The notes beneath the pieces are model-generated. The model saw only the letters and a program-made list of their open reading frames with translations, was not told the origin of the DNA and made no database searches. From an uncultured Candidatus Saccharibacteria bacterium (lineage in GTDB: Bacteria; Patescibacteriota; Saccharimonadia; Saccharimonadales; Saccharimonadaceae): a stretch of DNA of 64,000 bases. The DNA lies in assembly GCA_948614045.1 (NCBI GenBank), contig CAPFSK010000002.1:18404-82403 (forward strand). Direction: 5' to 3'. The stretch's first letter is position 1, and every line of letters begins with the position of its first letter. A program made the position numbers and the translations under genes. This document shows, piece by piece, positions 11,678 through 36,912 of this stretch.

Positions 11678-11697
11678 ATGCCTTTTACTATCCCTCC

Positions 11698-11910
11698 GGC
11701 GCCACCACCATAGTACAGTTACCATTGGCTTTTGTCCGTAGCGGGTGGGCAAAGCTCGATGGCGGCAGCATGCGCGTCGTCGGCCAGTACGGCTACTACT
11801 GGTCTCGTACCTCTATATCTACTACTAACGCCTACGTCCTGTACATCAACCCTACAGGCGTCAACCCGTCAGGCAACGGCAATCGTTTCGTCGGTCTCCC
11901 CTCCGCTGCC
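11698..11910 (+). pseudogene. FISUMP/DUF1566-like C-terminal cassette C1 (no ATG or SD, tail replaced by the inverted flank of C2)
   Basis: Encodes GATTIVQLPLAFVRSG...GYYWSRT...NAYVLY...PSGNGNRFVGLP. Only a TTG start, directly after the terminator. C-run of 4. Confidence 0.6.
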
Positions 11911-11928
11911 GTACTTCCTCTTCCTCCA

Positions 11929-12195
11929 TTAGGCACTACCTGGGTAGAGGCAGCGGAGGGGGAAACCGTCATTTCGCATGTTACCGTTTGATGGATGAAT
12001 GACAGTAGGATCCGTATACAAATACCAGGCAAGAGTAGATGAAACTGCTGTACGCGCCCAACTATAAGCACCGCGTATATTACCAACATTCCCATAGTCT
12101 AAATAGACATACCCGCTACGGACAAAAGTGAGTGGTAAAATGTTGTGATTATAACAACGCACATTTCCACAGTAATAACAGAGGAGATATGGCAT
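11929..12195 (-). CDS. FISUMP/DUF1566-like mini-protein, cassette C2 (88 aa, the only fully intact copy)
   Basis: ATG start. LTFVRSG...YSWARTAVSSTLAWYLY...PSNGNMRNDGFPLRCLYPGSA* with a C-run of 5. Confidence 0.6.
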   Translation of the reverse strand: MPYLLCYYCGNVRCYNHNILPLTFVRSGYVYLDYGNVGNIRGAYSWARTAVSSTLAWYLYTDPTVIHPSNGNMRNDGFPLRCLYPGSA

Positions 12196-12385
12196 AATGT
12201 TGTAAAAAATACATGAAAAATAGTCAGCAAAAATCCTCGAAAATCCTTGCTATTTCTACGCGAGTCAAGTATACTAGTAACAGTTCGAAAGAACATAAGG
12301 CTAACTGCGAGCCAACGATAAGTTGAGAGCTTATATGTTCAAAAAGTCGCCATGCTATGGGCGATTTTTTGGATTCCGGCTAGAG

Positions 12386-12598
12386 TCAGCGGAGGGGGCG
12401 ACCATAGTAACGATTGCCATAGTTTGATGGATAGATAATGGAAAAGCTGAAGTATAGACTGTAGGTATCGTTAGTCGAGTTTGATGTACGCGTCCAGCTA
12501 TAGCCGTTTGCTCCGATGACTCTTGTCTGGCTGACGCCAAGATCTACATATCCACTACGGACAAAAGCCAATGGTAACTGTACTATGGTGGTGGCGCC
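12386..12598 (-). pseudogene. Cassette C3 (no own start; TGC->TGA at the conserved Cys)
   Basis: GATTIVQLPLAFVRSG...GYSWTRT...DTYSLY...GNRYYGRPLR*. The 46-nt 5' block is identical to those of C1 and C7. Confidence 0.6.
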
Positions 12599-12623
12599 GG
12601 TAGTCGTACTTCCTTTTCCTCCA

Positions 12624-12840
12624 TTAGGCACTACCTGGGTAGAGGCAGCGGAGGGGGGAAACCAGCCCAAAGATTATTACTGTCTGAAGGATTAACACTT
12701 GTAGGACGAGTGTAGAGATGATAAGCAGTAGCAGACGATCTAGCCGTACGTGACCAGAAGTCGCCGCTGTTACCGACCACCCGCATAGCACCCTCATAGT
12801 CAGTACTAACATTAACCCATCCGCTACGGACAAAAGCCAA
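12624..12840 (-). pseudogene. Cassette C4 (TTG start only; C-run of 6 shifts the tail out of the GFPLRC frame)
   Basis: AFVRSGW...GDFWSRT...TAYHLY...PSDSNNLWAGFPPPLPLPR*. The alternative frame ends ...PLRCLYPGSA*. Confidence 0.6.
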
Positions 12841-14221: not shown

Positions 14222-14250
14222 CCGCTGGTCATTACGACTGGCGGTTTTTC
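14222..14250 (+). terminator. Intrinsic terminator
   Basis: CCGCTGGTC-atta-GACTGGCGG (two G-U pairs) followed by TTTTT. Confidence 0.6.
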
Positions 14251-14264
14251 ATTGCAAAAAGTCC

Positions 14265-14295
14265 TTGACCTGGAGTCCACTCCAGACTTTATAAT
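14265..14295 (+). promoter_or_regulatory. MerR-type promoter/operator with 19-bp spacer
   Basis: TTGACC-19 nt-TATAAT. The spacer contains the dyad CTGGAGT-cc-ACTCCAG. The ATG lies 6 nt after the -10. Confidence 0.75.
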
Positions 14296-14301
14296 GGAAA
14301 T

Positions 14302-14652: not shown

Positions 14653-15497
14653 TGAAGTATGTCAAACTTAATAATGGCGTAGAGATGCCGGCTGTGGGTT
14701 TAGGAGTATTCACTTTTAGCCCCGAAGATGCGGAAAAAGCCGTAGAAAGTGCCCTAAAATCCGGCTATCACTTGATTGATACGGCAAACTCTTATGTCAA
14801 CGAGCGGGCGACTGGTCGCGGTATCAAGAACTCTGGTATCAAGCGCGAAAATGTGTTTATTAGTTCTAAACTCTGGCCGTCCGAATACGAAAACGAGAAC
14901 GCGGTAAACGAAACTTTGGCGCGCCTCGGTATTGAATATATTGATTTACTTTTCTTACATCAGCCATCCGGCAATTATCTCAACGGCTACAAAATGATAG
15001 AACGGGCAGTGAAAGACGGTAAAGTTCGCGCCATTGGTCTATCTAATTTTGAAGGCGAATACTTTGACGATATTTTGAACCACTGCGAAATTAAACCGCA
15101 AGTGATGCAGGTAGAGTGCCATCCATATTATCCGCAAGTGGAACTCCGCGAGAAACAACTATTGCCGAATGATATTAAGCTGATGTCTTGGTTTCCGCTT
15201 GGACACGGCGATAAATCCCTCGTGAACGAACCAGTAATTGTGAAACTCGCCGAAAAATACGGTAAATCACCAGCCCAAATTATCTTACACTGGCATACAC
15301 AGATGGACTTTATTGTGATTCCGGGGTCGCGCAGTCCTGAGCATATTAAAGAAAACATTGATATTTTTGACTTTGAACTAACTGACGCAGAAATGGCAGA
15401 AATTGCTAATATCAACAAGAACGAAAGATTTTACTATCGCGACCCAGAAAACTTAAAAAGTTGGGTAAACCTAAAACCACAGTGGGAGGAAGAATAA
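14652..15497 (+). CDS. Aldo/keto reductase
   Basis: GTG start. KYVKLNNGVEMPAVGLGVF...IDTANSY...LHQP typical AKR motifs. Confidence 0.9.
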   Translation: MKYVKLNNGVEMPAVGLGVFTFSPEDAEKAVESALKSGYHLIDTANSYVNERATGRGIKNSGIKRENVFISSKLWPSEYENENAVNETLARLGIEYIDLLFLHQPSGNYLNGYKMIERAVKDGKVRAIGLSNFEGEYFDDILNHCEIKPQVMQVECHPYYPQVELREKQLLPNDIKLMSWFPLGHGDKSLVNEPVIVKLAEKYGKSPAQIILHWHTQMDFIVIPGSRSPEHIKENIDIFDFELTDAEMAEIANINKNERFYYRDPENLKSWVNLKPQWEEE

Positions 15498-16490
15498 ATG
15501 AGTAATCAATTTGGTCTAGTTTACGCGGGCGCAATTACTGAGAATGAACCCAGCAAGGTCAATATTAAGCCGGTAGAATATGCGGTGAACGATATTAAGG
15601 TATCGGCAAATCTCTATCTGCCACCAAACTTTGACGAAAATAAGAAATATCTCGGCATTACAGTCGCCCATCCGAACGGTGGTTGTAAGGAACAAGTCGC
15701 CGGGCTATATGCGCAGAAATTAGCAGAGTTGGGATATGTGGCGGTTGCGGCCGATGCGCGCTATCAGGGTGCTTCAGAGGGTAAACCGCGCCTGCGCGAT
15801 TATCCAGAGAACCGTATAGAAGATGTCAGTGGAATGGTGGACTATCTTATTTCCTTACCGTATATTGATAATAAACGCATTGGTGCGCTAGGTATTTGTG
15901 GTGGCGGTGGTTATACTCTCGCCTGCGCCCAGACCGACAAGCGCATTAAGGCGGTCGCAACTCTATCTATGTTTAACTCAGGTCGCGTGCGCCGCAATGG
16001 TTTCTTGGATCAAGATGTTACTGGAATTACTAGCCGCTTGGAACGCGCCGCTGAAGCGCATACTTCAGAACTTCAAGGTAAGGTAAAATACGAAGGTTTC
16101 TTGCCGCCGCACGAGAATGATGACGAACTGCGTGCTAAAATGGCGGAACTTCCAGAAAACTCGCTTTATCGCGATGGAATTGAGTATTATGGCATTACGC
16201 ACAAGCACCCTAACGCTACTGGGAGCTATACGACTGAATCGTTTATGAAGTTAATGGCTTTTGATGTAGAAGATCGGATGGATTTACTCACGCAGCCACT
16301 GTTAATGATTGTCGGTAGCGAGGCAGATACTAAATATATGTCTAAGGATGCGTTTGAGAAAGCCGTCAACGCACCAGAAAAAGAATTATTTGAGGTAGCC
16401 GGCGCAAGTCATATCCGCACTTACTATGTCCCGGAATATGTAGAAGCAATCGTAAAGAAGTTAAACAATTTTTATAGTAAATATCTTTAA
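15498..16490 (+). CDS. Alpha/beta-fold hydrolase (dienelactone-hydrolase-like)
   Basis: Nucleophile-elbow-like GICGGGGY. The length and layout fit an alpha/beta hydrolase. Confidence 0.7.
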   Translation: MSNQFGLVYAGAITENEPSKVNIKPVEYAVNDIKVSANLYLPPNFDENKKYLGITVAHPNGGCKEQVAGLYAQKLAELGYVAVAADARYQGASEGKPRLRDYPENRIEDVSGMVDYLISLPYIDNKRIGALGICGGGGYTLACAQTDKRIKAVATLSMFNSGRVRRNGFLDQDVTGITSRLERAAEAHTSELQGKVKYEGFLPPHENDDELRAKMAELPENSLYRDGIEYYGITHKHPNATGSYTTESFMKLMAFDVEDRMDLLTQPLLMIVGSEADTKYMSKDAFEKAVNAPEKELFEVAGASHIRTYYVPEYVEAIVKKLNNFYSKYL

Positions 16491-16500
16491 GGAGGTAAAG

Positions 16501-17139
16501 ATGAGCAAAAAGTTAGTTGGTGGAATTATTGGCGCAGTAGTCGTAGTCGCGATATTCGGACTAAGCGCATTCTTCTTACGCGGCCGTAATTCCGAGAACG
16601 AAAATAATAATGATAACAACGGAGGAAATGCTCAAGTGGAAAACAATACAAGCAAAACTGATGGTAAAATCTTAGTGGCTTACTATTCCGCTAGTGGTAA
16701 TACCGAGAATGTCGCGAAGAAAATTGCAGACAATCTTGGAGCGGATACTTTTGAGATTGTGCCACAGGAAATCTACACTGATGAAGATTTGGACTGGACG
16801 GCGGACGGCTCGCGCGTCAATCGTGAACATGAGGACGAAAGCTTGCGCGATATTGCGCTAGTTAATACCGCTCCGGCGGATTGGGCCTCATACGATACAG
16901 TCTTGATTGGCTATCCGATTTGGTGGGGAATTGCAGCCTGGCCGGTGAATAACTTTGTCAAAGAGAATGACTTTTCTGGCAAGACCGTAATCCCGTTCGC
17001 CACTTCGACATCCTCTGGACTAGGGCAGAGCGGGGAATTATTGGAAGCTATGTCGAATGGCGGTGATTGGCAGACTGGCATGAGGTTTAGCTCGCGCCCA
17101 TCTGACGGCGATATCAAAGATTTTACAGATAGTATTTAA
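16501..17139 (+). CDS. Membrane-anchored flavodoxin-like protein
   Basis: N-terminal TM, N-rich linker, then ILVAYYSASGNTENVAKKIA and a flavodoxin-like core. Confidence 0.75.
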   Translation: MSKKLVGGIIGAVVVVAIFGLSAFFLRGRNSENENNNDNNGGNAQVENNTSKTDGKILVAYYSASGNTENVAKKIADNLGADTFEIVPQEIYTDEDLDWTADGSRVNREHEDESLRDIALVNTAPADWASYDTVLIGYPIWWGIAAWPVNNFVKENDFSGKTVIPFATSTSSGLGQSGELLEAMSNGGDWQTGMRFSSRPSDGDIKDFTDSI

Positions 17140-17164
17140 CACAGAGAATGTAGCTGAACTAGCA

Positions 17165-24254: not shown

Positions 24255-24339
24255 GCCCGTGTGGTGAAATTGGTATACACGTATGCCTTAGGAGCATATG
24301 CCGCAAGGCGTGCTGGTTCAAGTCCAGTCGCGGGCACCA
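24255..24339 (+). tRNA. tRNA-Leu (anticodon UAG), long variable arm, CCA encoded
   Basis: Acceptor GCCCGTG/CGCGGGC, anticodon loop CTTAGGA, variable arm GCCGCAAGGCGT, T-arm GCTGGTTCAAGTCCAGT. TGCTATAAT promoter at 24237-24245. Confidence 0.9.
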
Positions 24340-25898
24340 TCAATGAATTCCTTGCCTTTGAGCAAGGTAGCAAAAGGCTCTTTCCAGAGGAAATGAGGCC
24401 TTTTTTCATCGTCAATTTCGAGGTTCAAGACGCATTTTCGAGTAAGCATGTCTTTTTCGGCTACACCAGCATTTCTTATCTGTTGCGGAAGGTTTTTAAG
24501 CAGGTTCAAGAACTCATCTTTAGAAACTATGGCTTGTTGGTATTTCTCGATATTGCCATCAATCTTCGAAAGTTCTGTCTCGATGTTTGCTAGGTCAGTT
24601 TCCAAAGACGCTAACTTATTCTGGGCGAGCTCACGGGGCTTCGAGCCAACTTGTAAGCTTGGCATTACGTTAAAAGAAATATGGTTTATTTCTGACGTTA
24701 GGTGAGATTTTCTACCTTGTAGACTACGGCGGTCAGTTCTCAACTGGACGACTTTCTCATCCGACCGTTTACCAAACTGCTTGCTATATGCTTTGTATTC
24801 TTTCTCCGTAAACTTTACGCTGTCTAGAGCTCTGTATAGAACGTTAAATATCGCCTCTGCACGTATGCTCTTTTGTGTTCTGGTACACTCCTTGTTGTCG
24901 CATCTATAATATAGATACCTTTCCTTACTGTGCGACCGACTAGCTCCAGGATACATTACATGCCCACAAACACCGCAACGCACCATGCCTCTTAAAGGAT
25001 AAAATGTAGCACGATTCTTCTTACTGGTTTTACCGGTCTTTCCATGAGGATTATCCGCAACAATAGCCTGAACTTTGTTGTATTCTTCCTCCGTCACCAT
25101 TGGCTTGAAATCATCAATTACTTTCCTTAAGTCCACCTCTTGGTCTGCTTGGACTAGCACTCCATAGTAAAATGAATCTTTGAAGATATTTGTCGGAGTA
25201 TTTATACTTGGCTTTATTGCTCGCGGAGTTTTATTCTTCCTATTAACCTTTGTCATCTTTTCCATTCCACTTTGTAGCCAGTAATCCAAAATCTCCTTAT
25301 TGCCCGCACCTTCTAACTTCATCTCCCAACCCTTACGGACTAAATCAAAGTTACTATCGGGTTCATAAAACCCTTGTAAGTTGCGATTATAGCCCCATTT
25401 TGGAGTGCCAGAGGACTTACCTTCTGGCAGTCTATTATCATTAGCACGTAACACACCTTCAGAAATATGCTCGGAGTATTGTTTAGCTAGAGCAAATAGG
25501 ATGTTCAACATAAGCTTACCACTACTATCATTCTCAAATCGACAAAACGGGAACTTCATGTCCTTAATGATTTCCTTGTCATACATGTCCATGATGGTAC
25601 CAGACTCTAGTGAGTTGCGAGAGAGCCTATCAGGATGCCATGCAATAATACCATCATAGATACCGTTTTCGATATCTTGTATCATCTCCATAAATGCTGG
25701 TCTGTTCTTGGGTGTTTTGGCAGACTTTTCTTCACGTATGACCTTAACAATCTTTAGTCCCTCACGCTTTGCTAGAGCCTTACAGTCCTTTATCTGGTCT
25801 TCAATGGAATGCTCTTGACTACCTTTATCTTCTGTAGATTTCCTCGCATACAGGACATAGTTCAGTTTAGATACATCTATCTCCTTTTTGCGTGCCAT
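24318..25898 (-). CDS. Large serine recombinase (integrase)
   Basis: N-terminal resolvase domain YARKSTEDKGS...HPDRLSRN, recombinase domain, zinc ribbon CGVCGH...YYRCDNKEC, and a coiled-coil tail. Confidence 0.9.
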   Translation of the reverse strand: MARKKEIDVSKLNYVLYARKSTEDKGSQEHSIEDQIKDCKALAKREGLKIVKVIREEKSAKTPKNRPAFMEMIQDIENGIYDGIIAWHPDRLSRNSLESGTIMDMYDKEIIKDMKFPFCRFENDSSGKLMLNILFALAKQYSEHISEGVLRANDNRLPEGKSSGTPKWGYNRNLQGFYEPDSNFDLVRKGWEMKLEGAGNKEILDYWLQSGMEKMTKVNRKNKTPRAIKPSINTPTNIFKDSFYYGVLVQADQEVDLRKVIDDFKPMVTEEEYNKVQAIVADNPHGKTGKTSKKNRATFYPLRGMVRCGVCGHVMYPGASRSHSKERYLYYRCDNKECTRTQKSIRAEAIFNVLYRALDSVKFTEKEYKAYSKQFGKRSDEKVVQLRTDRRSLQGRKSHLTSEINHISFNVMPSLQVGSKPRELAQNKLASLETDLANIETELSKIDGNIEKYQQAIVSKDEFLNLLKNLPQQIRNAGVAEKDMLTRKCVLNLEIDDEKRPHFLWKEPFATLLKGKEFIDGARDWT

Positions 25899-25927
25899 AG
25901 ATGTATTATATCATATTACCCCTGTTA

Positions 25928-26149
25928 TTAGAACTTAATCATACCTCCTCTATTATCACTCATAGTAGTTGCTGTATCAAACTTCGCCCATTCTGGATTG
26001 GGGCACGGTGTATTTTGCAGGTGTTTCAGGCAGTGGACTAGAGCAACCAGATTGTCGCCAGCCTCATCCTCTTTGGACCGTAAAGCGAGCACTAGCCGAC
26101 TATCACTATCATCAGGCTTCAAAATCAAACCATTCTGATTAGTCTTCAT
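25928..26149 (-). CDS. Hypothetical small protein (73 aa)
   Basis: ORF in the same orientation as, and tightly spaced with, the integrase operon. Confidence 0.45.
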   Translation of the reverse strand: MKTNQNGLILKPDDSDSRLVLALRSKEDEAGDNLVALVHCLKHLQNTPCPNPEWAKFDTATTMSDNRGGMIKF

Positions 26150-26253
26150 CAGCTAGTGCCTCCGTGTTTATGTTAGTTTTTGTTTTATACTGACATTATC
26201 TCGTAAGACACCAAAAAGTTCTTCACCCGTGAGGGGGATATTTGGGGGATGTT

Positions 26254-26868
26254 TTATTCTATATCGAGTCTATAAGCGGTTGGGTTTGTCCGGACCCTGT
26301 TGACGTGCTTATGGCCATCTCCGTAGTATGGAGCTAGAGCTTCATCAAGTTTGCATTTATGCCTAGATACAGTAGCGACGTTATCGTCACCCCATATCCT
26401 TGCTATCTCCACCATCGTCAGAACATGCTCATCATTCAATAGGAATGCTACTAGGACTTCCCGGAGTTTACCACCAAAGGCTATTTCCTTATCGCGAAAC
26501 AGAATACGTCCACCAACCAGTAGCTCATAATCACCAAGTTTCGTAGGCTGATGTCTAGACTGTGCGGAGCGATTGATAGACTTGAGATGATATAGTTGCC
26601 CTCGCATATCAACAATTAACCCGATATAGTGCCTCAAATAGTCACCACAATTATCTGGAGTTAGTTCACCAAACGTATTGCCAGCAATTAGTCTAGCGTG
26701 TAAATCTAACTGGTCGGTGCCCAGAACTAGCGTATCTAGTTCCTGTTTCCAAGAAGATATGTCATCAACAGTTAGGGGCAGAGTTTGAGCTTTAACCGAC
26801 AGCCTACCTAGACTTTTAGCTATTTCTTCTAAATGCTCCAATTCTTCTGTTGTATCGCCCCGAATCAT
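26254..26868 (-). CDS. Putative DNA-binding regulator with OmpR/PhoB-like winged-helix C-terminus
   Basis: The C-terminus resembles trans_reg_C: LREVLVAFLLNDEHVLTMVEIARIWGDD...VSRHKCKLDEAL...AYRLD. Confidence 0.55.
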   Translation of the reverse strand: MIRGDTTEELEHLEEIAKSLGRLSVKAQTLPLTVDDISSWKQELDTLVLGTDQLDLHARLIAGNTFGELTPDNCGDYLRHYIGLIVDMRGQLYHLKSINRSAQSRHQPTKLGDYELLVGGRILFRDKEIAFGGKLREVLVAFLLNDEHVLTMVEIARIWGDDNVATVSRHKCKLDEALAPYYGDGHKHVNRVRTNPTAYRLDIE

Positions 26869-26925
26869 GGGTATATTATAACAGATGTAGTCGTCGATTA
26901 GTATTGAGGGGTGCCGTATTATATA

Positions 26926-28356
26926 CTACTGCTCATCTAATTCGGCTAGTTGACGCAAAAGTTCCGCCCTGCGTTGCTCCTTATAATCGTCAACAACCGT
27001 TTCAGGTATATCTAGCGTGCTTTGGTGTCGGTTCATAAACCCAGCAACGTCCTGATTGACGATAATATCTTCTCTACTAATCGGTCGAGTGAGATATAGA
27101 CTGTCCAAAGAAACACAACGGGAAACCGCCACATAAGTCTGACCCGAGCTAAATGCTCCTCCCTCTAAATTTACCTCTACTGATTTGTAGGTTTGACCCT
27201 GTGCCTTATGAATGGTTAATGCCCATGCCAAACGTAATGGAAATTGCGTGAAAGTAGCAACAGTCCGAGCTACCAATTTTTTAGTATTGGCATTATACTC
27301 ATAAACTTTCTTCTCCCAAGTAGCACGGTCAATGCGGTATTCGACTTTGTTAATCATAACTTTCACCATATCCTGCGATAGCTCCGATACAACCCCAATA
27401 GTGCCGTTCACCCAGCGTCTACCCCGATTGGTTCCGTATGTAGCCTCATCACCCTCTGTATCGTTCTTCAACATCATAACTTGAGCACCAACTTTTAGGT
27501 GTAGCTCCACTTCGGTTGGAGTACCAAACTTGGAAAAATCACCAGTAATACTTGCTTGATAAGTGTATTCTGGTCGTCCAATTTGATTTAATCTTTCTTG
27601 ATTAATTCTTGAAACTGTTTCGTTGCGAGGACTGAGGACTATGGCTCGATTATGGTCATCGCGTGGGGCAGTGCCAGAACAATGGTTGAGAACATCCAAC
27701 TCGTTGTCAGTAATACGGCCCTCCCGCATGTCGTTTAGAATACTGATAAAACCGGGATCCTTTTGCCGAAAAACACGTTTAAGTTCATAGACTGGCAGTG
27801 GTGCCCTATCAAATACTGGTGCATTAAAGAAAAACACACCACCATACTTATCCGTCAAATATCTATCTACTTGCGGCTCAACGACTGGTGGTAGTTGATA
27901 TAAATCTCCGAACATAAGGACTTGTTTTCCACCAAACGGCAATGTATTGTTGTTGGCAAGCTGCAATTTAAGGTCAATGGCCGACATAACATCCACTCTC
28001 ACCATTGAGACCTCGTCTATGATGAGAACATCAATAGATTTCAAAATCTCCTGACGTTTACCCCATACACCCTTGCGTTTGATTTCTTCAAGGTTTTGAA
28101 CATTAATATCTAGCCCGAAGAATGAATGCATTGTTTGGCCGCCAACATTTAGTGCTGATATCCCAGTTGGGGCAACTTTTACCACGTTCTTATGTGTATT
28201 CTTAACAAAATACTCTAGCAAAAAGGACTTACCGGAACCAGCTCGACCAGTTATATACATGGTTTCATTGGCTCTCTCCATACGATTAAAAATGCGAATT
28301 TTCTCCTCGTTTGGTAGTTCGTTATTGCTCTTCGTCACCGGTTTAAGGAGTGCCAT
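26926..28356 (-). CDS. Pif1/RecD-like SF1 helicase
   Basis: Walker A GRAGSGKS, Walker B LIIDEVSMV, FGDLYQLPPV, and the C-terminal TIHKAQGQTY motif. Confidence 0.85.
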   Translation of the reverse strand: MALLKPVTKSNNELPNEEKIRIFNRMERANETMYITGRAGSGKSFLLEYFVKNTHKNVVKVAPTGISALNVGGQTMHSFFGLDINVQNLEEIKRKGVWGKRQEILKSIDVLIIDEVSMVRVDVMSAIDLKLQLANNNTLPFGGKQVLMFGDLYQLPPVVEPQVDRYLTDKYGGVFFFNAPVFDRAPLPVYELKRVFRQKDPGFISILNDMREGRITDNELDVLNHCSGTAPRDDHNRAIVLSPRNETVSRINQERLNQIGRPEYTYQASITGDFSKFGTPTEVELHLKVGAQVMMLKNDTEGDEATYGTNRGRRWVNGTIGVVSELSQDMVKVMINKVEYRIDRATWEKKVYEYNANTKKLVARTVATFTQFPLRLAWALTIHKAQGQTYKSVEVNLEGGAFSSGQTYVAVSRCVSLDSLYLTRPISREDIIVNQDVAGFMNRHQSTLDIPETVVDDYKEQRRAELLRQLAELDEQ

Positions 28357-28361
28357 CTTAA

Positions 28362-28790
28362 TTACTCCTTATCACTATCATCTAATAGCCCCACCTGATT
28401 AACGGCAGCCTTACTCTTCGTCGTCCGTCTAGGCTTCTTTGGTGTAGCTTTAGATTCATTTTTAAGTTGAGGACGAGCGACTACTTCTGATGCTGATGGG
28501 TTTAATTGAGTAATAGGTTCGGGCTGGGACGACTCCTGTGCTACGATAGGTGTATCATAGTCGTCATCAGCATTAATAGTTCCTGACTCTTGCCGTAATA
28601 CCTCCTTATAGGCAAGATTACTCAACGCATAGGCAGTCTGTCGAGTTTCCTCTAGACTAGTAGTTAATTCCGCCAAGCTAGAGCTTATACCTTTGATTAG
28701 TTCATGGTATGAAGCAATTTTTTGCTCAAGTGTTTGAATACTATTGCTCATTTGTTCCCAACGGCTAGCATCGTTACCGGTCAGTTCCAT
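28362..28790 (-). CDS. Hypothetical coiled-coil protein with basic tail
   Basis: First gene of the leftward operon. Helical N-terminus and K/R-rich C-terminus. Confidence 0.55.
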   Translation of the reverse strand: MELTGNDASRWEQMSNSIQTLEQKIASYHELIKGISSSLAELTTSLEETRQTAYALSNLAYKEVLRQESGTINADDDYDTPIVAQESSQPEPITQLNPSASEVVARPQLKNESKATPKKPRRTTKSKAAVNQVGLLDDSDKE

Positions 28791-28831
28791 AAGACTCCTT
28801 TTACATAAATATTATTGTGGTGACAATTAAA

Positions 28832-28951
28832 AAGGACACCACGAGAGGTGTCTTACTTCCTACATCACACCTAGACACAAAGTGTCCTGGTGTTCTACAT
28901 GGTGTCCTGTAAATGGGCACCTTGTGTATCAGATGTGATGTATTAAGTAAG
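28832..28951. promoter_or_regulatory. Iteron/operator cluster
   Basis: Palindrome AGGACACC-n5-AGGTGTCT (28833-28853). A 21-bp imperfect IR (28851-28871 / 28930-28951) brackets direct repeats GTGTCCTG, GTGTTCTA, GGTGTCCTG and GGGCACCT. Confidence 0.55.
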
Positions 28952-29739
28952 ACATCTATATTATACCATACGAACCCAATTCATCAAACAGAAACCGCCC
29001 TGCGGACGGTTCGCTGGCAGACCTAACGGTCGCCATCGGGGACACTAATTAGCGTACATGATAGATTCACCAGACAAATACTCTAGCTACTATCATCAAA
29101 AGAAAAATAATAATTCATGCGAGCGATACTGTCATTTGATATAATTCACCAATACTATAAAACGAACACCTATATCACTTTTACAGAGGTATATACTTTG
29201 ATGAGTCCTTATTTCTCTATATAGACTATATTGAGTAAGAACCCAATCATTTCCTATAATTCCCCCGCAAAATACCGCCTCAAAACGCCCGTTTTAGGCT
29301 GATTCTACAGTGTAATGGTCTGACTTTAAGACACTCTCATTGTCGAGATGATACTTATACCGTCTTCGATATTATGTTGCCGATTTCTCACTGGTGTCGG
29401 TGCGATTCAGAGCTAAAACAGTATAATGAATGTCTTTGTCTCTCCTTGAGTTCCTACCCACTTCCGATTGGTGGTGAGCTCCAGTAGAGCAGAGAACTCG
29501 GCGGGGAGGGGTTTAGCTAATATCATCAAGATAAAACATCAAAAGACTAAAGGACTACATATAAATCATGCGAATAGTAGTATCTAAACCTCCTCTATTC
29601 CGTAAGGGCAAGCCTACTCCATATTCATCAAGCTAGACCGACAAGGGGGCTCTGGAGGGGGTAGCTAAAGTAAGCAACCAACTATTCTCTTAACAGCTCC
29701 GCTGTCTGTCTATGAGTATTAAATAAAAGGAGCATAACT

Positions 29740-30030
29740 ATGAGCAATGCTGAAGAGTTACGAACTATACTAACAAGAATCATCAAAAACAACAAGCTAT
29801 ATGGATGTAGTTTTACCTATGGAGTAGCTTTGCGTATGGGTATAGTAAACCAACTATTTCCCGACGAATTAGACCAACTGATTACCGATACGATTGAAGA
29901 CATCTATAAGGACACTCTGGACGTGATGGGCGACGCGGGTATGCGTGTCGATACTGTTGCTATAGCCCACGTCATTGATATAGCAGTGCTAGACGAGATA
30001 GCTCGACATCTTATTGACGAGGAAGATTAG
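29740..30030 (+). CDS. Hypothetical acidic small protein (96 aa)
   Basis: ORF with SD AAAGGAG. Confidence 0.55.
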   Translation: MSNAEELRTILTRIIKNNKLYGCSFTYGVALRMGIVNQLFPDELDQLITDTIEDIYKDTLDVMGDAGMRVDTVAIAHVIDIAVLDEIARHLIDEED

Positions 30031-30127
30031 CTACCAGGTAGGAGGAGTCATTGCGACTTCTCCTCTTTTTATGTCACCAATACAAAGCCCTTCGGGCTCT
30101 GCCTACAGCCTCCGCTGGTGAGAATAG

Positions 30128-30907
30128 CTACCTGCTGTTGATTTTGTTCAACTTCTTGGAATTTTCTTCTCTTCGCCGTTGCCGTATTTGTTCGTGCAAC
30201 TTGTCCTCCAAAATCGTATCGATAGCATCTTGCAATACAAGGTATTGCTTTTCACACTCTCCCTCACTCAACTCGTGTATACCGCTACTCAAAAGTTTAT
30301 AGAGAACACTAAATCCAGTGTCTTTCAAATACTCATCGAATACGCCTTTTTCGACAAGTTCTTTTACCCTGTCTGACATATACTGTTTTGGTTCAGTAAT
30401 GTCAGCTTGAGTTTCTGCTTGTTTGACGAGCGACTCAAAGACACGCCGTAAGTAGTTAAAAGCAGCAATGTATAGACCTGAATAATAAGCTTTAGCGGCA
30501 TTAAGTCTATACTCTTTATCGCCTTTGGAGAGTAGCTTAATAGCGTCACTATTTACGCTCACGTCAAATTGAGTGGCATCTGGATATTGACCAATCTTAA
30601 CTAGACGAGAATTGGGCATAGCTTCCAAAATAATCTCAACGCTTTTACCACACGTGCATGCGAATTTTATACGCTTAATGGAATTATCAAATACAATGTT
30701 TTTATTAGATGTCGATAACTTTATAGCTACGTCTTGAGTATCCGTGTAATGAATCGCTATAAAGCCACGTTCTCCGCCGCAGTTCGGGCAAAAGAGGGTG
30801 GTTTGTTGGCCTTTGCTAGATAAGAAATCACCTCTAGTCTTGTCGTCATTGAATTTGTATTCAAACCCAATCGGTTTCGGGATAAAATCTGCAAGTTCTA
30901 TCGTCAT
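30128..30907 (-). CDS. Zinc-ribbon + DUF4145-like protein (possible defence/abortive-infection cargo)
   Basis: CPNCGG...CTCG ribbon. C-terminal helical region LNAAKAYYSGLYIAAFNYLRRVFESLV resembles DUF4145. TGTTATAAT and an SD lie upstream. Confidence 0.6.
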   Translation of the reverse strand: MTIELADFIPKPIGFEYKFNDDKTRGDFLSSKGQQTTLFCPNCGGERGFIAIHYTDTQDVAIKLSTSNKNIVFDNSIKRIKFACTCGKSVEIILEAMPNSRLVKIGQYPDATQFDVSVNSDAIKLLSKGDKEYRLNAAKAYYSGLYIAAFNYLRRVFESLVKQAETQADITEPKQYMSDRVKELVEKGVFDEYLKDTGFSVLYKLLSSGIHELSEGECEKQYLVLQDAIDTILEDKLHEQIRQRRREENSKKLNKINSR

Positions 30908-31122
30908 CAGTTAAGCTCCTTTGTCTAAATTATAACACTTCGAGTAATAGGTTCAAAAGTTTTCTGGTAGTTCTCCTACAACTTGTATTCCTCTTGATGT
31001 CTTAAGATTGCCAATATCTCTTGCGTGACCGATTCGGGCTCCAATAGCTGAATACTATCATCTTGTGCCAGGTATTCTACAAGATAATCGTAATGTTCAA
31101 GCAAGTTCACACTCGGGGCACC

Positions 31123-31433: not shown

Positions 31434-31465
31434 GACGTTAAAATTTTTAGAAAAATTTTAACGTC
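31434..31465. promoter_or_regulatory. Perfect 15-bp inverted repeat (operator-like) upstream of cassette C7
   Basis: GACGTTAAAATTTTT-ag-AAAAATTTTAACGTC. Confidence 0.5.
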
Positions 31466-31502
31466 GCAAAAAACAATACTAATGTAGGTCCTCTATAATA
31501 TC

Positions 31503-31772
31503 ATGAATTATTATATTACAACTACCGGCGCCACCACCATAGTACAGTTACCATTGGCTTTTGTCCGTAGTGGGTATATCTATCCACCAAGTGGCGCTAT
31601 CCTTAATGTTAGTGCTAATGGCTATGGTTGGTCCAAAACTTCTAAATCATCGACTAGCACATATGATTTAGGCATACATCCGGATAACGCCAATCCGTCC
31701 GATAGCAGTAATCGTTATGATGGTTTCCCCCCTCCGCTGCCGTGCCTGAAGCCAATGGAAGAATGGAGATGA
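31503..31772 (+). CDS. Cassette C7: FISUMP/DUF1566-like mini-protein (ATG start; C-run of 6 gives an alternative tail)
   Basis: MNYYITTTGATTIVQLPLAFVRSG...GYGWSKT...STYDLG...PSDSSNRYDGFPPPLPC.... With 5 Cs it would end GFPLRCRA*. Confidence 0.5.
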   Translation: MNYYITTTGATTIVQLPLAFVRSGYIYPPSGAILNVSANGYGWSKTSKSSTSTYDLGIHPDNANPSDSSNRYDGFPPPLPCLKPMEEWR

Positions 31773-31885
31773 GAAATAGCTACTCTCAGGAATCTTCGCG
31801 ACCAACGGGGAGCGAGCGAAGCGCAGACCCGCCCGTAACGACGGGACGGGTCAAGCGGGTCCTGAAAGTAGCTATTTCTCATATC
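31766..31885. repeat. 120-nt palindromic element: 26-bp arms (2 mismatches) around a GC-rich 68-nt core
   Basis: GAGATGAGAAATAGCTACTCTCAGGA ... TCCTGAAAGTAGCTATTTCTCATATC. The core has its own hairpins (CTTCGC/GCGAAG, CCCGCCCGT/ACGGGACGGG). Confidence 0.8.
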
Positions 31886-31900
31886 TTCCTCTTTCCTCCA

Positions 31901-32141
31901 TTAGGCACTACCTGGGTAGAGGCAGCGGAGGGATCGACCGACGTAGCGACCACCGCCAGCTGATGGATCGACCGACGTAGCGACCACCGCCAGCTGATGG
32001 ATCGACATTATCGGTGTAGATAAATAAGTCATAGGCGTTATTCGGTGAATTCGCCGTACGCGACCACAGCTGAGCATAGCGACCAACATACCACACCGCG
32101 CTAGCATCAAGATATACAATCCCGCTACGGACAAAAGCCAT
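31901..32141 (-). pseudogene. Cassette C5, disrupted by a 34-bp tandem duplication
   Basis: ATG-AFVRSGIVYLD...LWSRTANSPNNAYDLF...DPSAGGGRYVGRS, then a frameshift. The frame after the duplication ends SLRCLYPGSA*. Confidence 0.65.
31931..31998. repeat. Perfect 34-bp tandem duplication (plus 8-bp partial third copy)
   Basis: GGATCGACCGACGTAGCGACCACCGCCAGCTGAT x2. Confidence 0.95.
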
Positions 32142-32150
32142 ATGCTGAAC

Positions 32151-32411
32151 TCAGTTTTCCGAAAGATCGGCACCAAACTGTGGCCAAACCCAGCGGAGGG
32201 GGAAACCCCAGTAGCGATTTGTCGCATTCATATTGAGATCCGTAGGGTTGAAGTTGAGACGATAGGCGTTGGTAGACGAGTTTGCCGTACGCGACCAGTC
32301 GTAGCCGTTGCTACCGACGTTGGCGACACCACCACCGGTAAGATTAGTATGCCCGCTACGGACAAAAGCCAAACATAACCTAGCGCTAGAGCAAAAGAAG
32401 CCAGTCCGCAC
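32151..32411 (-). CDS. Cassette C6: FISUMP/DUF1566-like mini-protein with divergent tail (GTG start)
   Basis: LAFVRSGHTNLTGGGVANVGSNGYDWSRTANSSTNAYRLNFNPTDLNMNATNRYWGFPLRW.... Cys->Trp at the conserved RC. Confidence 0.45.
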   Translation of the reverse strand: MRTGFFCSSARLCLAFVRSGHTNLTGGGVANVGSNGYDWSRTANSSTNAYRLNFNPTDLNMNATNRYWGFPLRWVWPQFGADLSEN

Positions 32412-32628
32412 TTAGCCTAACCATAATCAGACTAATCCCTGCACTCACAATTTTTCCTCTGACTTTGAGAGTCTGGCTTCACGATCTTTCAAAAGGGAAC
32501 TTATTACAACTGGAGCTTGACCTCAGATGTTGTAGTCGGGTCCCATGGAGCTTGCCCTCCACTTCTTCATTTTAGCACACCGTAAAATCATAAAACGTGC
32601 TACAATATATGAGACTCGAAGGAGGAAA

Positions 32629-33228
32629 ATGAAGAATTCTAAGATTACGCGTAAAATTACCCAGGGCGTCTATGTCCTGACTACTCAGGGAGGGGGCTGT
32701 ATTGTCGACGCAGTCTCCCGTGCCAGTGCCGGCGACCAGCCGTTGATTTCGGTTGCAGTTGCGAAGACGAATCATTCCCATAAGCTACTCGCCGAAAACG
32801 ACAAGTTCGCCCTCTCGGTTCTTGGCGAAGATGCGGACCCTGAAATCATCCAGACTTTTGGCTTTAATTGCTCTAAAGATTGTGATAAGTTCGCTAAGTG
32901 CGAGACCGGAGAAGTCGATGGTGTTCCAGTCATCAAAGCTTCGCTCGGCTACATGCTCTGCGAGAAAGTTGATGCGATTGATACCGAGACGCATACGCTT
33001 TATATTGGGCGGATGGTTGAGGGTGATATTTTTTCAGATGCGAGGCCTATGAGCTATGCTTATTACCAAGAACATAAGGGCAAGTTGACTAAAACCCAGA
33101 GTGAGCAGGGAAAGACCGCTTGGGTTTGTACGGCCTGTGGCTACGTTTACTATGGCGATGAAGTGCCAGACGATTATAAATGTCCGCTTTGCGGCCTTGG
33201 GAAAGATTATTTTAAAAAGAAAGTTTAG
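32629..33228 (+). CDS. Flavin-reductase-like domain fused to C-terminal rubredoxin
   Basis: SD GAAGGAGG. Flavin reductase-like core and rubredoxin knuckles WVCTACGY...YKCPLCG. Confidence 0.8.
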
Positions 33229-33274: not shown

Positions 33275-35242
33275 CTAGTATCTCGGCGCCAGCTCGCGGC
33301 TATACGTTTCATTATAACTCGAGCCATATCTCGAAGCTTGAGCATAGCCCCAGAGGTAACTATCCGCACGCAAGTTAAATACTTCTGCCGAACTCTGGCG
33401 CGTTGAGTACCCAGTGGCGCCATTCGTCGCCAACCCTCTGCTCATCTGCGCCTGCGAGTCTGCTCCAAATGTCCGATTCAGCTTCATGCTGCCCGCTACT
33501 ACTGGCCCGTTGAAGACTAACTGTTGCGTACATGTATTACCCGCATTCCCTACGCCATCGCTTGTCGTTCCAGTACCACCGGCCGTGCCTTCTGCATAAT
33601 CTACGCAAGTATTGACTTCGCCCTTGGCGATAATCCAAGCGTCAATCCGCGTCACATCACTTTTTACTTTGACGTTATTTGCGAAAATAATCGTCTGCGG
33701 CAAACTCCGTACATTATAATTTGTATCATCGTTCGCAGAATTATTAACGTAACTTCCACTCGCGCTACTAATCGTAATATCCGTATTGCTGTCTCCGATA
33801 ACTGTCACTCCTGCCGCCGGATCACTACCTACTTTTTCTAGGTATGCCGTCAATCGCGTTCGGAACGCGCTCGAGCTCAGGTTTGATCCCGCACCCGCTA
33901 GGTTGCATCCAACATTGGAAATCGTGAGTGGCGAATTCGTCGACCAAGGCGAAGTTGCGTTATTGCAAACTGCGTCGTTTGTCGATGTTAAGCCCGTCCC
34001 GTTACTAATACTTGCGCCCGAAGCAATCGCCTTACTTTTATCCATCTTGCCAGTCGACGCCGCCAGATATTCTGACCATGAACCGTAGAGATTGCGCGAA
34101 TCGCCTGCTACAGGCATGCCTTCGGCGTTTTCTAGCTGGGTGCTTCCGGCCGGAGTCATGTACCCCAGCGTTGGTCCGAGTCCACTAATCAAATGCCGTT
34201 TCGCGAGCGACATTATAATGCTGTAACCTTGATTATCCTGACTAGAAACTAGTAAACTCCCATTCCAAAACGCCGTTGTCGGCCTTTTGGCGATCGTCCG
34301 GCAGGCTGGCTGCGCAACATAGGTATAGTCCTTTGCTGGTTCCGAGGTGTAAGTTACGCTGCTCGCACCATTCGCCTTAATGCCGTAAAAATATCGGAAC
34401 TTATAGCCGAACGAGTTGCAGTACTTCTGCCCAATATCATCCGGCACGGCCACGGTCGCCGTCTCGCTAGTCGTGTCGCTGCCTGACGCCCCGTTTTCGG
34501 CTCTATCCGCATAATCGACCGTATAGCGTGTCAGCCGACTACAAGCAAGTGGTTGCGGATTCCGCCCCCAGAATAGATTACATAGGGCCGTCCCTTTGAA
34601 CCTCGCTGCCCCTGCGACTAGGCTTGCATCATATGAAATTCCTGCGCCATGATTAAATACCACTGCTTCCTTGCCGATTAGGCGCCGTGTTTTGACTCCG
34701 TTCGCCGCACCGCTAATCGCCAGCGTTGCATCTTCTCCTGCTAGCATTGCGTATTCTGATCCCGCTGATGCCCCTAGCCCCACATTCGCTTGAGCCAGAG
34801 GATCCTTGCCGTTCTCGTCTGAACCCATATATGTAATATAGGCACAGGCTTGTGAATTCGCAGCGTTTTTACCGCCTTCGACAATCCAGTTGTAACCGGC
34901 GCCAGCCAGACCATTCACGACGAAGTCGACGTATTTTTTCTCGTACCTCACGCGCCGGCAAACTCGCTTCGTTTTCCCGCTGTCAGCTGCTGCAAACTGC
35001 ACGGTCACCGTATCGTTTCCGATTGTCGCTCCGCTATTCTGGCTTTCTTTTCCACTCGGCGAGGTCCAAGTCCCGGTCGCTCCACGCTTATCTTGCCAGT
35101 CTTTATTCGCCCAAGCATCCCCGCTCTCTGTGCCGGATTTCGTTCGAATTTTCCAATCTACTGACGGCGCCTGTACGGTGTCATTTGCGCCAAATGGATT
35201 AGTTACTTCGTAGAATAATTCATGTTTGAAGTTGACTGTCAC
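33275..35242 (-). CDS. C-terminal part (655 aa) of a large secreted protein, in frame with the upstream ORF across one TGA
   Basis: No signal peptide and no SD, only a GTG start. Same frame as 35270-36079. Confidence 0.6.
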   Translation of the reverse strand: MTVNFKHELFYEVTNPFGANDTVQAPSVDWKIRTKSGTESGDAWANKDWQDKRGATGTWTSPSGKESQNSGATIGNDTVTVQFAAADSGKTKRVCRRVRYEKKYVDFVVNGLAGAGYNWIVEGGKNAANSQACAYITYMGSDENGKDPLAQANVGLGASAGSEYAMLAGEDATLAISGAANGVKTRRLIGKEAVVFNHGAGISYDASLVAGAARFKGTALCNLFWGRNPQPLACSRLTRYTVDYADRAENGASGSDTTSETATVAVPDDIGQKYCNSFGYKFRYFYGIKANGASSVTYTSEPAKDYTYVAQPACRTIAKRPTTAFWNGSLLVSSQDNQGYSIIMSLAKRHLISGLGPTLGYMTPAGSTQLENAEGMPVAGDSRNLYGSWSEYLAASTGKMDKSKAIASGASISNGTGLTSTNDAVCNNATSPWSTNSPLTISNVGCNLAGAGSNLSSSAFRTRLTAYLEKVGSDPAAGVTVIGDSNTDITISSASGSYVNNSANDDTNYNVRSLPQTIIFANNVKVKSDVTRIDAWIIAKGEVNTCVDYAEGTAGGTGTTSDGVGNAGNTCTQQLVFNGPVVAGSMKLNRTFGADSQAQMSRGLATNGATGYSTRQSSAEVFNLRADSYLWGYAQASRYGSSYNETYSRELAPRY

Positions 35243-35269
35243 ATTAGCTTCATCCGTACTAATCTCGAC

Positions 35270-36079
35270 TCATGCTGACCCGTCGGCGGCGCTAGTCGCA
35301 CTGTAGCCGGATATATCTGAACCTTGCTCAGGAATTTCAACTGTAGACTTGGAGTAAAAACGGTTTTTGTTTTCGTCATTCGTCGTATCATTGATAATTG
35401 CACGAACTTCAGACGGGTCGCTACCGCAACCTTGCCCCGAGATATTAAAGCATCGATAAACTTGCACTGTACGTCGACAGTCTTTCGCTCCGTTTGACAA
35501 GTCGGTACAAGTACTATCTGAAGATGAGAAGAATGTATCCAAATCGGTAATTGTATTCCCGCCAAGACTACCTCCTCCGGACCATTCGTATTGCGTTTGC
35601 GTATAACCGCGCGGAATCGAACGGCTCTGGTAGGTGATTCCTGGAATTGAGCTACCACTACTATCGCGCAAGTCCGTATCGACGGCTGTAACTTGGTATG
35701 GAACTTCGGTATTATGTCCGCACCCGTATACCATCCCATGAATATCAAAAGTTGCCGTCCTATCGCGTCCGCCGACTTCGCGATTTGCCAGCACTAATGC
35801 TTGACCTGGACCACCCCCAGCAGCGTTGCTAATCCATAGGGCTCCCCAGCGCAGACCTGTGTTATTTCGACAGTTCGTACAGGCACTTTGGACTGCTGGA
35901 ATTCCGCCTACTGCTACGCCGCCTAAAACCGCTTGCTCCTCGCAGCCATCGGCATTGGCTGCCGCAAGAGCCTGGCGCGGGTGCGCTATTAGCATTGGCA
36001 AGCTCAGAATAGCCATCAACGCTAAAGCAATAGCTATGTAGTGAGTAGTGCGTTTCGCGATTTGTTGTTCAATTTTCAT
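35270..36079 (-). CDS. N-terminal part (signal peptide + Cys-rich domain) of the large secreted protein
   Basis: ATG at 36079 with GGAG upstream. Signal-like HYIAIALALMAILSLPMLIA...ALAA. Ends at TGA 35270-35272. Confidence 0.65.
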   Translation of the reverse strand: MKIEQQIAKRTTHYIAIALALMAILSLPMLIAHPRQALAAANADGCEEQAVLGGVAVGGIPAVQSACTNCRNNTGLRWGALWISNAAGGGPGQALVLANREVGGRDRTATFDIHGMVYGCGHNTEVPYQVTAVDTDLRDSSGSSIPGITYQSRSIPRGYTQTQYEWSGGGSLGGNTITDLDTFFSSSDSTCTDLSNGAKDCRRTVQVYRCFNISGQGCGSDPSEVRAIINDTTNDENKNRFYSKSTVEIPEQGSDISGYSATSAADGSA

Positions 36080-36080
36080 C

Positions 36081-36797
36081 CTATCCCACTCCGTTTGTAT
36101 CAATCATTGTATTATTTTCAATAAACTCCTCGCACCGCTCCGCTTTTTCTGGCTCTTCAAGACTATTCCAGGCATTTACCATCGCATTACAGTAAGTCAG
36201 AGCCTCGTCCAGCGGTAAATCATCAGGATTAATCCCGTCTCCGACTTCAACTACACGCTCCGGGTAACTATTCGCTGCATAAAATAACATTTCGGCAATT
36301 GTGATGCGATTGCGATCGTCAATGGTTGCCGCTTCGTTCTTCTGTTCTTCATAATACTCTACTGCGCCTTCAATATTCTGTTCGTCGCTGTCGTCTGATT
36401 CTGTATTGTAAATTTTATTCGCGCTGGTTTGAATATCCTTGATTGTTTCATCCTGCAAAAAAGTCATTTCCTCTGGTTCCGGCCGGCTCAACGTTGCAAT
36501 AATCCACCAAGTCCCCAGCCCAGTCAACAAGATTAGCAAGCCTACGATTAAGATAATCGAAATCATCTTTCGTGTTTTCTCGTTCTGCTTTTTCCGCTCA
36601 GCTGCCCGCGCCTTATGCTCCTTGAACGGGTCTTCCTGCCGCGCAGTGATTTTTCCAATCTCCGACGATCGAAACTGAATATTAGACTCTTGACTCGTAT
36701 CCGTACCTTGTGCGTCAGGCGCCACTGACACACTCCCAGCCTTAGTAGCTGTTTGCGCAGCACCAGAAACCGGGCTACTATTAGACGGCTCGCTCAT
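36081..36797 (-). CDS. Hypothetical single-pass membrane protein
   Basis: SD GAGGAGG before the ATG at 36797. TM segment ISIILIVGLLILLTGLGTWWIIA. Confidence 0.65.
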   Translation of the reverse strand: MSEPSNSSPVSGAAQTATKAGSVSVAPDAQGTDTSQESNIQFRSSEIGKITARQEDPFKEHKARAAERKKQNEKTRKMISIILIVGLLILLTGLGTWWIIATLSRPEPEEMTFLQDETIKDIQTSANKIYNTESDDSDEQNIEGAVEYYEEQKNEAATIDDRNRITIAEMLFYAANSYPERVVEVGDGINPDDLPLDEALTYCNAMVNAWNSLEEPEKAERCEEFIENNTMIDTNGVG

Positions 36798-36912
36798 TCT
36801 ACCTCCTCGAACCTTACTTGTAATGGTTAAAACGATTATAGTACGATTTTTATTGATCGACAAGTCTGAGTTTTGTGAACCTGTTGTGCTAAAATGATTC
36901 CAAGGAGTTTTT

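Follow-up and report, generated by a model that had tools for sequence, protein, structure and literature searches.

The stretch of DNA considered here, 64,000 nt from an uncultured Candidatus Saccharibacteria bacterium and referred to as a whole as the window, carries a family of short cassettes in which a hypervariable body of ~165 nt is enclosed by two conserved end blocks. A motif scan in all six frames located exactly seven of them, four in locus 1 (C1 to C4, 11.7-12.8 kb) and three in locus 2 (C7, C5 and C6, 31503-32411), and locus 2 is the subject of this analysis. An earlier inspection of the same DNA, below called the sequence-only reading, had described locus 2 as C7 on the forward strand opposed to C5 and C6 on the reverse strand, and all three were indeed found to be members of the family. 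L numbers denote related sequences or strains that were set against the window, and P numbers denote proteins retrieved with a profile of the family.

C7 is listed as an open reading frame (ORF) at 31503-31772 (+). It begins with an ATG, has the hexamer TATAAT at 31494-31499 and contains a perfect 46-nt 5' block (31525..31570, +), as had been claimed for it. The block encodes TGATTIVQLPLAFVRS and is present in perfect copies at 11696-11741 (+) and 12555-12600 (-); positions 31554-31570 form the universal 5' core TTGGCTTTTGTCCGTAG, whose conservation across 140 cassettes is 90% or higher, synonymous sites included. The variable body that follows (31571..31726, +) is open in frame, and the corresponding slot of L037 holds a wholly different one. 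It leads into a poly-C tract (31727..31732, +) of six C, where the family norm is five (111/152), and because of these six C the cassette is shifted out of the frame that ends in GFPLRC. Note that the independent assembly L001 also has six C at this position. The 3' block (GGTTTCCCCCCTCCGCTGCC...) and its conserved 3' flank occupy 31722..31765 (+).

The region preceding the 5' block, the head of C7 (31494..31524, +), is a 5'-truncated relic of the coding region of a longer head that is found in an ORF of 121-145 aa in related genomes. In a tblastn search the 145-aa long head aligns from 31494 onwards, with 'YNIMNYYITTTGATT' of C7 paired with 'FYNLLNQYNATSGTTGATT' of the long head, and the C7 head likewise aligns with the heads of L081, L078 and L072 (MNYYNATSGTTGATT). 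The TATAAT hexamer corresponds to the Tyr-Asn codons, and the ATG at 31503 to the codons that follow, of the longer ancestral head SFYNLLNQYNATSGTTGATT. Because the head aligns with long-head codons, the TATAAT and ATG of C7 are, on this alignment, relics of such codons and no expression signals; the sequence-only reading had listed both, but their use as signs that C7 is expressed is not supported, and C7 is frameshifted besides. The prediction of sigma-70-like promoters gave none at C7, C5 or C6.

The tails of C7 and C5 face each other, in the geometry that had been described, across a spacer (31766..31885) with 26-nt inverted arms at 31766-31791 and 31860-31885. The spacer encloses a GC-rich element of ~75 nt with two hairpins (31790-31867), of which further copies exist elsewhere in these genomes, and its predicted fold has an energy of -115 kcal/mol (z -9.65). 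C5 (31895..32141, -) has its ATG start at 32141 and an ORF at 32141..31908, with the 5' core at 32125-32141 and the 3' block at 31895-31932. Its body is 99% identical to L037:6572-, and the disruption that had been noted in it is caused by a 34-bp tandem duplication in the tail (31923-31956 / 31957-31990, -) that is absent from L037. C6 (32151..32411, -) follows after a gap of 9 nt (32142-32150), starts with a GTG at 32411, has its 5' core at 32356-32372 and an intact body of 168 nt, and ends in the variant GFPLRW in place of GFPLRC. Start codon, tail and gap of C6 are thus as first described. C5 and C6 share with C7 only the 16-17-nt core.

Left flank, C7, spacer and C5 (31369..32141) form a module with a paralogue, locus B, at L037:5854-6582, L078:4900-5900 and L081:9850-10900. 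The module flank from AGCTTACAAAAATCC, both tails and the spacer are common to the three, and homology stops at the start codon of C5; C6 is missing from the paralogous locus in L037. The perfect, AT-rich inverted repeat upstream of C7, correctly reported with its 15-bp arms (31434-31448 / 31451-31465) and a 2-nt loop, is kept at locus B of other strains with changes in the loop only. Locus B follows genes for ABC transporters, dUTPase, DUF362, VanY and beta-lactamase, and as these continue the last genes of the window (58776-63886), we infer that it lies just beyond the right end of the window. A scan of metagenomes at the Joint Genome Institute (JGI) with the left flank of C7 gave 0 hits.

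Locus 1 (11696..12840; C1 on the forward strand, C2, C3 and C4 on the reverse strand) belongs to the same family and would be a sister archive, with the bodies of C3 and C4 replaced in L001. The 46-nt 5' block and a 38-nt 3' block each occur in three perfect copies in the window. The 17-nt 5' core, with up to 3 mismatches allowed, occurs seven times against an expectation of 0.11, and the 10-nt 3' core CCCTCCGCTG seven times against 0.08; in none of the 100 shuffles that served as background did either count reach seven. The poly-C/G tract that opens the 3' block measures 6 in C7, 6 in C4 (12650-12655 region) and 4 in C1 (11896-11899 region), which puts each of the three out of frame, and the lengths in the window are confirmed by the assemblies L001 and L002. 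The equivalent tracts at the C7 site of L037 and the C4 site of L001 have 5. Such changes could reflect slipped-strand phase variation or a mere mutational hotspot. In the +2 frame, C4 would read through into C3, similar to a 181-aa ORF of L001.

For a census of the family, cassettes were anchored on DNA alone, with no reading frame assumed, which yielded 152 cassettes in non-redundant loci. Body lengths, mostly 171 nt within a range of 165-186 nt, are a multiple of three in 143 of the 152, and all 143 are free of stop codons; the two alternative frames have on average 2.9 stops, and only 11.5% of them are stop-free. Starts are scarce: in only 26 (~19%) of 140 cassettes is the last upstream stop followed by an in-frame ATG, and only nine have a start codon together with a Shine-Dalgarno-like motif. 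None of 151 cassettes in 78 sequences lies inside a long ORF of the kind expected for a full-length expression gene, and the longest genuine head has ~60-80 aa.

Conservation by codon position was analyzed in 85 distinct cassettes from several species. Inside the bodies third positions are the least conserved (0.59, versus 0.67 and 0.76), which is the pattern that selection on a protein would leave. The end blocks, in contrast to the bodies, are 90-100% conserved with synonymous positions included, and since their third positions are 94-98% conserved across several species, they are constrained as DNA. The universal blocks comprise ~17-20 nt per end, TTGGCTTTTGTCCGTAG at the 5' end and GGTTTCCCCCTCCGCTGCC at the 3' end, and subfamilies lengthen them to as much as 46 nt at the 5' end and to beyond the stop codon at the 3' end. 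The family thus comprises multiple promoterless, partial copies with open frames, in which conserved blocks, as potential recombination anchors, bracket a variable region; both are features of gene-conversion systems, and replaced tracts end in the blocks.

In a scan with one genome per species, the family was located in Candidatus Saccharibacteria from mouse and other guts, with 65 loci. The loci are dispersed and number about 10 to 25 or more in each of four related metagenome-assembled genomes, where they often lie at the end of a contig. Some cassettes are found in bins labelled Lachnospiraceae, Dorea, Roseburia or Oscillospiraceae, and we suspect that these bins are mis-assigned. With dozens of loci per genome, locus 2 is not a one-off decay product, as the sequence-only reading had argued.

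Searches of the seven window cassettes against Pfam and NCBIfam gave nothing significant. A protein search with the cassettes retrieved only short ORFs of 82-121 aa from gut metagenomes, among which one N-terminal head is combined with differing middles and one middle with differing heads. The family profile, searched against 1.8 billion representatives, yielded 4,352 protein matches, some of them giant proteins. In the large matches the cassette stretch coincides with positions 127-187 of the 187 positions of the Fib_succ_major profile (PF09603) and with positions 63-116 of Lcl_C (PF07603, DUF1566), and the close homologue P0205 (56% identity, 164 aa) itself carries PF09603. Judged by these profile positions, the cassette is the C-terminal ~60 codons of a Fib_succ_major (FISUMP)/DUF1566 domain of the CLec2-type, lectin-like class, so that it represents the last third of the domain and is no full member of it. 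Its peptide pattern is FVRSG...G..G.WSRT...AY.L....PS....R..GFPLRC, and no match was found for the profile among PDB sequences. In the CLec2 class (DUF1566/DUF823/Fib_succ_major), the C-terminal stretch is the variable repeat of many diversity-generating retroelements (DGRs) (PMC5758913).

The heads form a truncation series of a single gene, with the shorter ones beginning at progressively later points of the long head. The longest, MKASICPSGTGGNWVLPLSGT(A/M)NNNVSGSFYNLL...(T)GATTIVQLPLAFVRSG, results in an ORF of 121-145 aa with the invariant head peptide ASICPSGTGGNWVLPLSGT... and occurs at L007:17137-17574, L011:4862-5227, L013:6001-6366 and L086/L087:465-830; in L007 and L011 the gene lies downstream of gyrB-gyrA, outside this window. 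Its upstream region has an extended -10 element (TGnTATAAT) and a leader of ~110 nt, both conserved between divergent genomes. The leader contains two hairpins and is considered non-coding because of a 25-nt indel. An AT-rich perfect palindrome (TACCAAAATT/AATTTTGGTA) overlaps the likely start of the long-head gene and resembles the one at 31434-31465. In L084 homology extends ~25 aa further toward the N-terminus of the domain, yet L084 is itself interrupted. On these features the 121-aa long-head gene is the probable expression site, and none of the seven window cassettes is one.

Bodies are replaced, whole or in segments, within otherwise identical DNA. The 3,295-bp contigs L086 and L087, from different samples, have 82 differences, of which 81 fall within 644-808, the body of the long-head gene, and 60 of the 61 differences between L011 and L086 lie in the same body; within it, two alleles of this one slot disagree at 49% of the positions. 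One invariant head carries at least 13 bodies and another at least 11, and conversely one body was found with four different heads. Regions adjoining locus 1 are 97.7-99.7% identical between L001 and the window, with C1, C2 and the intercassette sequence unchanged and the bodies of C3 and C4 entirely different. The L037 module has the flank, 5' block, tails and spacer of locus 2, with five C in the tract, a C5 that lacks the duplication, no C6, and a fully replaced C7 body, and at locus B both cassette bodies vary between strains. The sequence-only reading had proposed that the loci exchange sequence, and movement of bodies between loci is indeed observed: the C3 body of the window is 89% identical, with no indels, to that of the forward-strand cassette at locus B of L078, where unrelated bodies reach ~55-60%. 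Within single genomes, two loci share bodies with 100% identity over 184 and 222 nt, and no homology extends past the edges of the cassettes. Segmental changes are seen in C1 of L002, which differs from C1 of the window solely by 6 substitutions within 11 nt, and in the expression-site variant L085, which is ~90% C1-like over its first two thirds, includes an exact run of 33 nt and then diverges.

We therefore favor, with a probability of roughly 60%, the explanation that C5, C6 and C7 belong, as slots, to an archive of silent cassettes spread over the genome, and that homologous gene conversion exchanges these cassettes and varies a lectin-like protein. The end blocks would serve as homology anchors for a RecA-type, non-reciprocal gene conversion among the slots, and this conversion would also supply the one copy with a promoter, namely the 121-aa long-head gene that relatives have downstream of gyrA. 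As a consequence, the ligand-binding face of a small lectin-like protein would vary, which might help in attachment to the changing surfaces of bacterial hosts or in escape from antibody in the gut.

Several observations weigh against this explanation. The 121-aa product has no signal peptide and lacks the first third of the domain, and in two AlphaFold runs (with 24 and 40 sequences) it reached a predicted local distance difference test score (pLDDT) of 37 and 39, so that the models are unusable and an autonomously folded product is unproven. When bodies at the expression site were painted as mosaics of the available cassettes, coverage was only partial; donors were found only in part because no complete genome is among the sequences compared, and the longest-common-substring mosaic test is partly confounded by the conserved GYGWSRT core. 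The direction of transfer, from silent to expressed copy, is presumed. The 'silent' slots vary as well, unlike classical pilS or vls archives, and as the archive itself turns over, interstrain exchange by transformation may contribute; replacement from strain to strain could stem from natural transformation and not from an intragenomic program. In addition, the reading frame is disrupted in four of the seven window cassettes versus 5 of 145 elsewhere, so that the archive of this particular strain may be decaying.

Two alternatives survive best, and we regard both as unlikely. In the first, each cassette would be a separate gene of a multigene family. The small proteins (~63-120 aa) would be expressed independently, with diversifying selection and occasional recombination, and their translation could begin at a conserved TTG (ATG in C5) just before AFVRSG. 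Such proteins would account for bodies that stay open, for the ATG starts of C2 and C5, for the terminator-like hairpin 3' of C3, for homologues that are called as proteins of 82-121 aa, and for a ratio of nonsynonymous to synonymous differences (pN/pS) of about 0.8-0.9 in pairs at 70-90% identity. They are difficult to reconcile with the 81% of cassettes that have no in-frame ATG and the 94% that have no start codon with a Shine-Dalgarno-like motif, with a whole subfamily that has TTA at the putative TTG start, and with the lack of predicted promoters at locus 2. A 60-residue third of a lectin fold is, moreover, unlikely to fold alone, and the heads are graded 5' truncations of one gene.

The second alternative, which we consider equally unlikely, dispenses with any program: the loci would be hotspots at which DNA from foreign strains replaces the bodies by ordinary homologous recombination on the conserved blocks, with the diversity maintained by frequency-dependent selection. 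In its favor, Saccharibacteria are naturally competent, all evidence for replacement compares different samples or strains, and the 'silent' slots are as variable as the promoter-bearing one. Copying within a genome is nevertheless required by the identical bodies that one genome has at two loci, whose homology does not go beyond the cassettes. Likewise, end blocks that are frozen at synonymous sites across species and dozens of start-less open copies that are maintained argue for selection on the archive itself.

A site-specific inversion of the shufflon or Mu G-segment type, in which the inverted 5' blocks would be recombinase sites and inversion would swap the bodies, is quite improbable. 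Tail-to-tail pairs with identical inverted 46-nt 5' blocks, such as C1/C3, speak for it, as do large serine recombinases encoded no more than a few kb away, both in the window and in L012. The recombinase in the window, however, belongs to an element integrated at tRNA-Leu (24340-31115), and L001 has the same cassettes, the C7 locus among them, but not this element, so that a link between locus 2 and the element, next to which the sequence-only reading had placed it, is not supported. Nor is inversion between the tail-to-tail copies, whose inverted segments that reading had thought able to exchange: 6-9 independent assemblies, a limited sample, contain no inverted isomer, with the same arrangement in L001-L006 at locus 1 and in L037, L078 and L081 at locus B. 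Many cassettes are solitary or in tandem, incoming bodies are not present at the locus, C5 and C6 have merely the short core in common with C7, and each replaced tract has an end block at both of its limits, as gene conversion would leave it. Finally, no dedicated recombinase is adjacent, and no constant 5' part of a gene, in the form of a long ORF, abuts any of the 151 cassettes.

Neutral debris, either a selfish repeat or what decay has left of a former surface-protein gene, is very improbable. The four frame-disrupted copies among the seven of the window and the truncated heads would fit such decay, but 94% of the 152 bodies are intact with zero stops, versus 11.5% of alternative frames that are stop-free, conservation shows a codon-position pattern, and turnover is extreme and strictly localized; the ORF census contradicts neutral decay. 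Least credible of all is a DGR that mutates the cassettes, as variable or template repeats, by means of a reverse transcriptase, for in spite of the homology to the CLec2 (DUF1566/Fib_succ_major) region that DGRs diversify and a GC-rich 3' end, it is rejected by the mismatch spectrum (no pair with adenine-specific mismatches, highest share of A ~41%), by the extent of variation (49% of positions between alleles, lengths of 165-186 nt) and by the absence of a reverse transcriptase from the 30 window ORFs scanned and from the genes neighboring related loci.

In its architecture, the proposed archive of silent cassettes seems closest to the functional pseudogenes of Anaplasma msp2 and to Neisseria pilS, and it also recalls MgPar and vls. 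With msp2/msp3 of Anaplasma marginale it would share dispersed, promoterless, truncated copies in a small genome, conserved ends that flank a unique, open hypervariable region, and whole or segmental conversion that feeds one expression site. The antigen there is an outer-membrane, porin-like protein and here the tail of a lectin fold, the copies number dozens here and fewer than ten there, and in Saccharibacteria the archive slots turn over between strains and the expression site is a putative one. The likeness to pilE/pilS (PMC4023411 for context) consists in silent copies truncated at the 5' end, short conserved segments on both sides of variable ones, conserved sequence past the stop codon and a non-reciprocal transfer of RecA type, which for the cassettes is presumed. 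Differences are that no G-quadruplex (G4)-forming element or Sma/Cla repeat was identified here, that the product is no pilin, and that the much shorter cassettes are scattered as single units or as pairs.

In Borrelia vlsE/vls and Mycoplasma genitalium MgPa/MgPar, segmental mosaics are likewise confined to the cassette region of an otherwise invariant gene (PMC2632889, PMC11499132), the archives stay open although they have no promoters, and the MgPar copies are dispersed through a genome of ~0.6 Mb. The vls cassettes, in contrast, lie side by side in a single array that adjoins the expression site, the silent copies of both systems are stable, and neither uses a lectin fold. The scaffold and the C-terminal stretch that varies, ...G-F-x-[VL]-R-C, are those of CLec2-class DGR targets such as Legionella LdtA, half of this class being short single-domain proteins (PMC5758913). 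Here, however, variation is not adenine-directed, no reverse transcriptase or template repeat was found, and the diversity would be supplied by stored copies. The R64 shufflon and the phage Mu G segment resemble the loci in their alternative C-terminal segments, arranged tail to tail with conserved 5' repeats. They differ in that the cassettes have no adjacent constant 5' part of a gene and no dedicated Rci/Gin recombinase, and in that the loci are dispersed, no inversion isomers were seen and the source of new bodies lies outside the locus.

Such variation systems are known as a kind, and what would be new, as far as we found, is variation by cassettes and gene conversion on a lectin scaffold of the DGR type, in bacteria of the candidate phyla radiation (CPR); in the literature, within limited open-access coverage, no cassette or gene-conversion system is described in Saccharibacteria or Patescibacteria. 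The wider proposition, to which we give slightly less than even odds, is that gut Saccharibacteria possess a retroelement-independent means of diversification, which would be the first programmed variation system to be reported from CPR bacteria, and in which a genome-wide library of dozens of silent cassettes convergently rewrites, by templated gene conversion, a lectin surface of the type that is otherwise rewritten by DGRs. Saccharibacteria are obligate epibionts with genomes of ~1 Mb, and their host recognition and persistence in animals are largely unexplained. If true, an exchangeable library for a lectin-like surface that takes up a large share of the intergenic space would mark a molecule at the interface to host or immune system. 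To our knowledge, cassette-based variation has so far been the hallmark of a few pathogens; it would then also operate in CPR bacteria and provide a natural comparison with DGRs on the same fold. Note that cassette repeats break assemblies, and many cassette loci end contigs.

Among the matches to the family profile, P0026, P0030, P0032, P0033 and P0038 repeat this C-terminal Fib_succ_major fragment 3-10 times in tandem within one ORF, and P0038 has 10 units that each end in GFPVRCVQ. From their sequences these proteins look like contiguous cassette arrays of the vls type, and the phenomenon may reach beyond Saccharibacteria; a cluster look-up returned a taxonomy for almost none of them.

The two-hairpin element of the spacer (…CTTCGCGACCAACGGGGAGCGAGCGAAG…GACCCGCCCGTAACGACGGGACGGGTC…), with copies at 31790-31867, L073:3322-3393, L030:1250-1333, L065:1667-1741 and L001:11764-11842, shows compensatory changes in its second hairpin and has a different inverted flank pair around each copy. 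The copy in L001 lies within the obg linker region, and the called ORF is open across it. The element resembles the palindromic elements of Rickettsia or an unknown small RNA. Rfam gave no match for it, a permissive Rfam search of locus 2 was empty, and the search of the whole window returned a tRNA-Leu alone.

The integrated element at 24340-31115 (6.8 kb) abuts the 3' end of this tRNA-Leu gene (24255-24339). Besides unknown ORFs, it contains genes for a large serine recombinase (24318-25898, -) and a PIF1-like helicase (26926-28356, -), and the near-identical strain L001 lacks it precisely, with 24339 joined to 31116. A second island, at 14053-17149 (3.1 kb), gives way to ~270 bp in L001 and contains genes for a MerR regulator, an aldo/keto reductase, a dienelactone-hydrolase-like protein and a flavodoxin. 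At 12975-13045 a unit of ~33 nt (AAAACCCGTATACGGGTTTTACTGTTGAAGAACAGT) is present twice in tandem, and the long hairpins formed by the two copies separate a strong promoter-like site (12889-12917, TTGACA-17-TACAAT with TG) from a gene that starts at 13203. At 6575-8134, a single ORF of 519 aa fuses RuvX (Holliday junction resolvase-like) and YceG/MltG domains. Locus 2 is followed on its right side by a flavin reductase-rubredoxin gene (32545-33228) and then by three consecutive ORFs (655, 277 and 260 aa) at 33275-36863 (-) that have no Pfam match, the first of which has a high content of Gly, Ser, Thr and Ala and is a possible surface protein.

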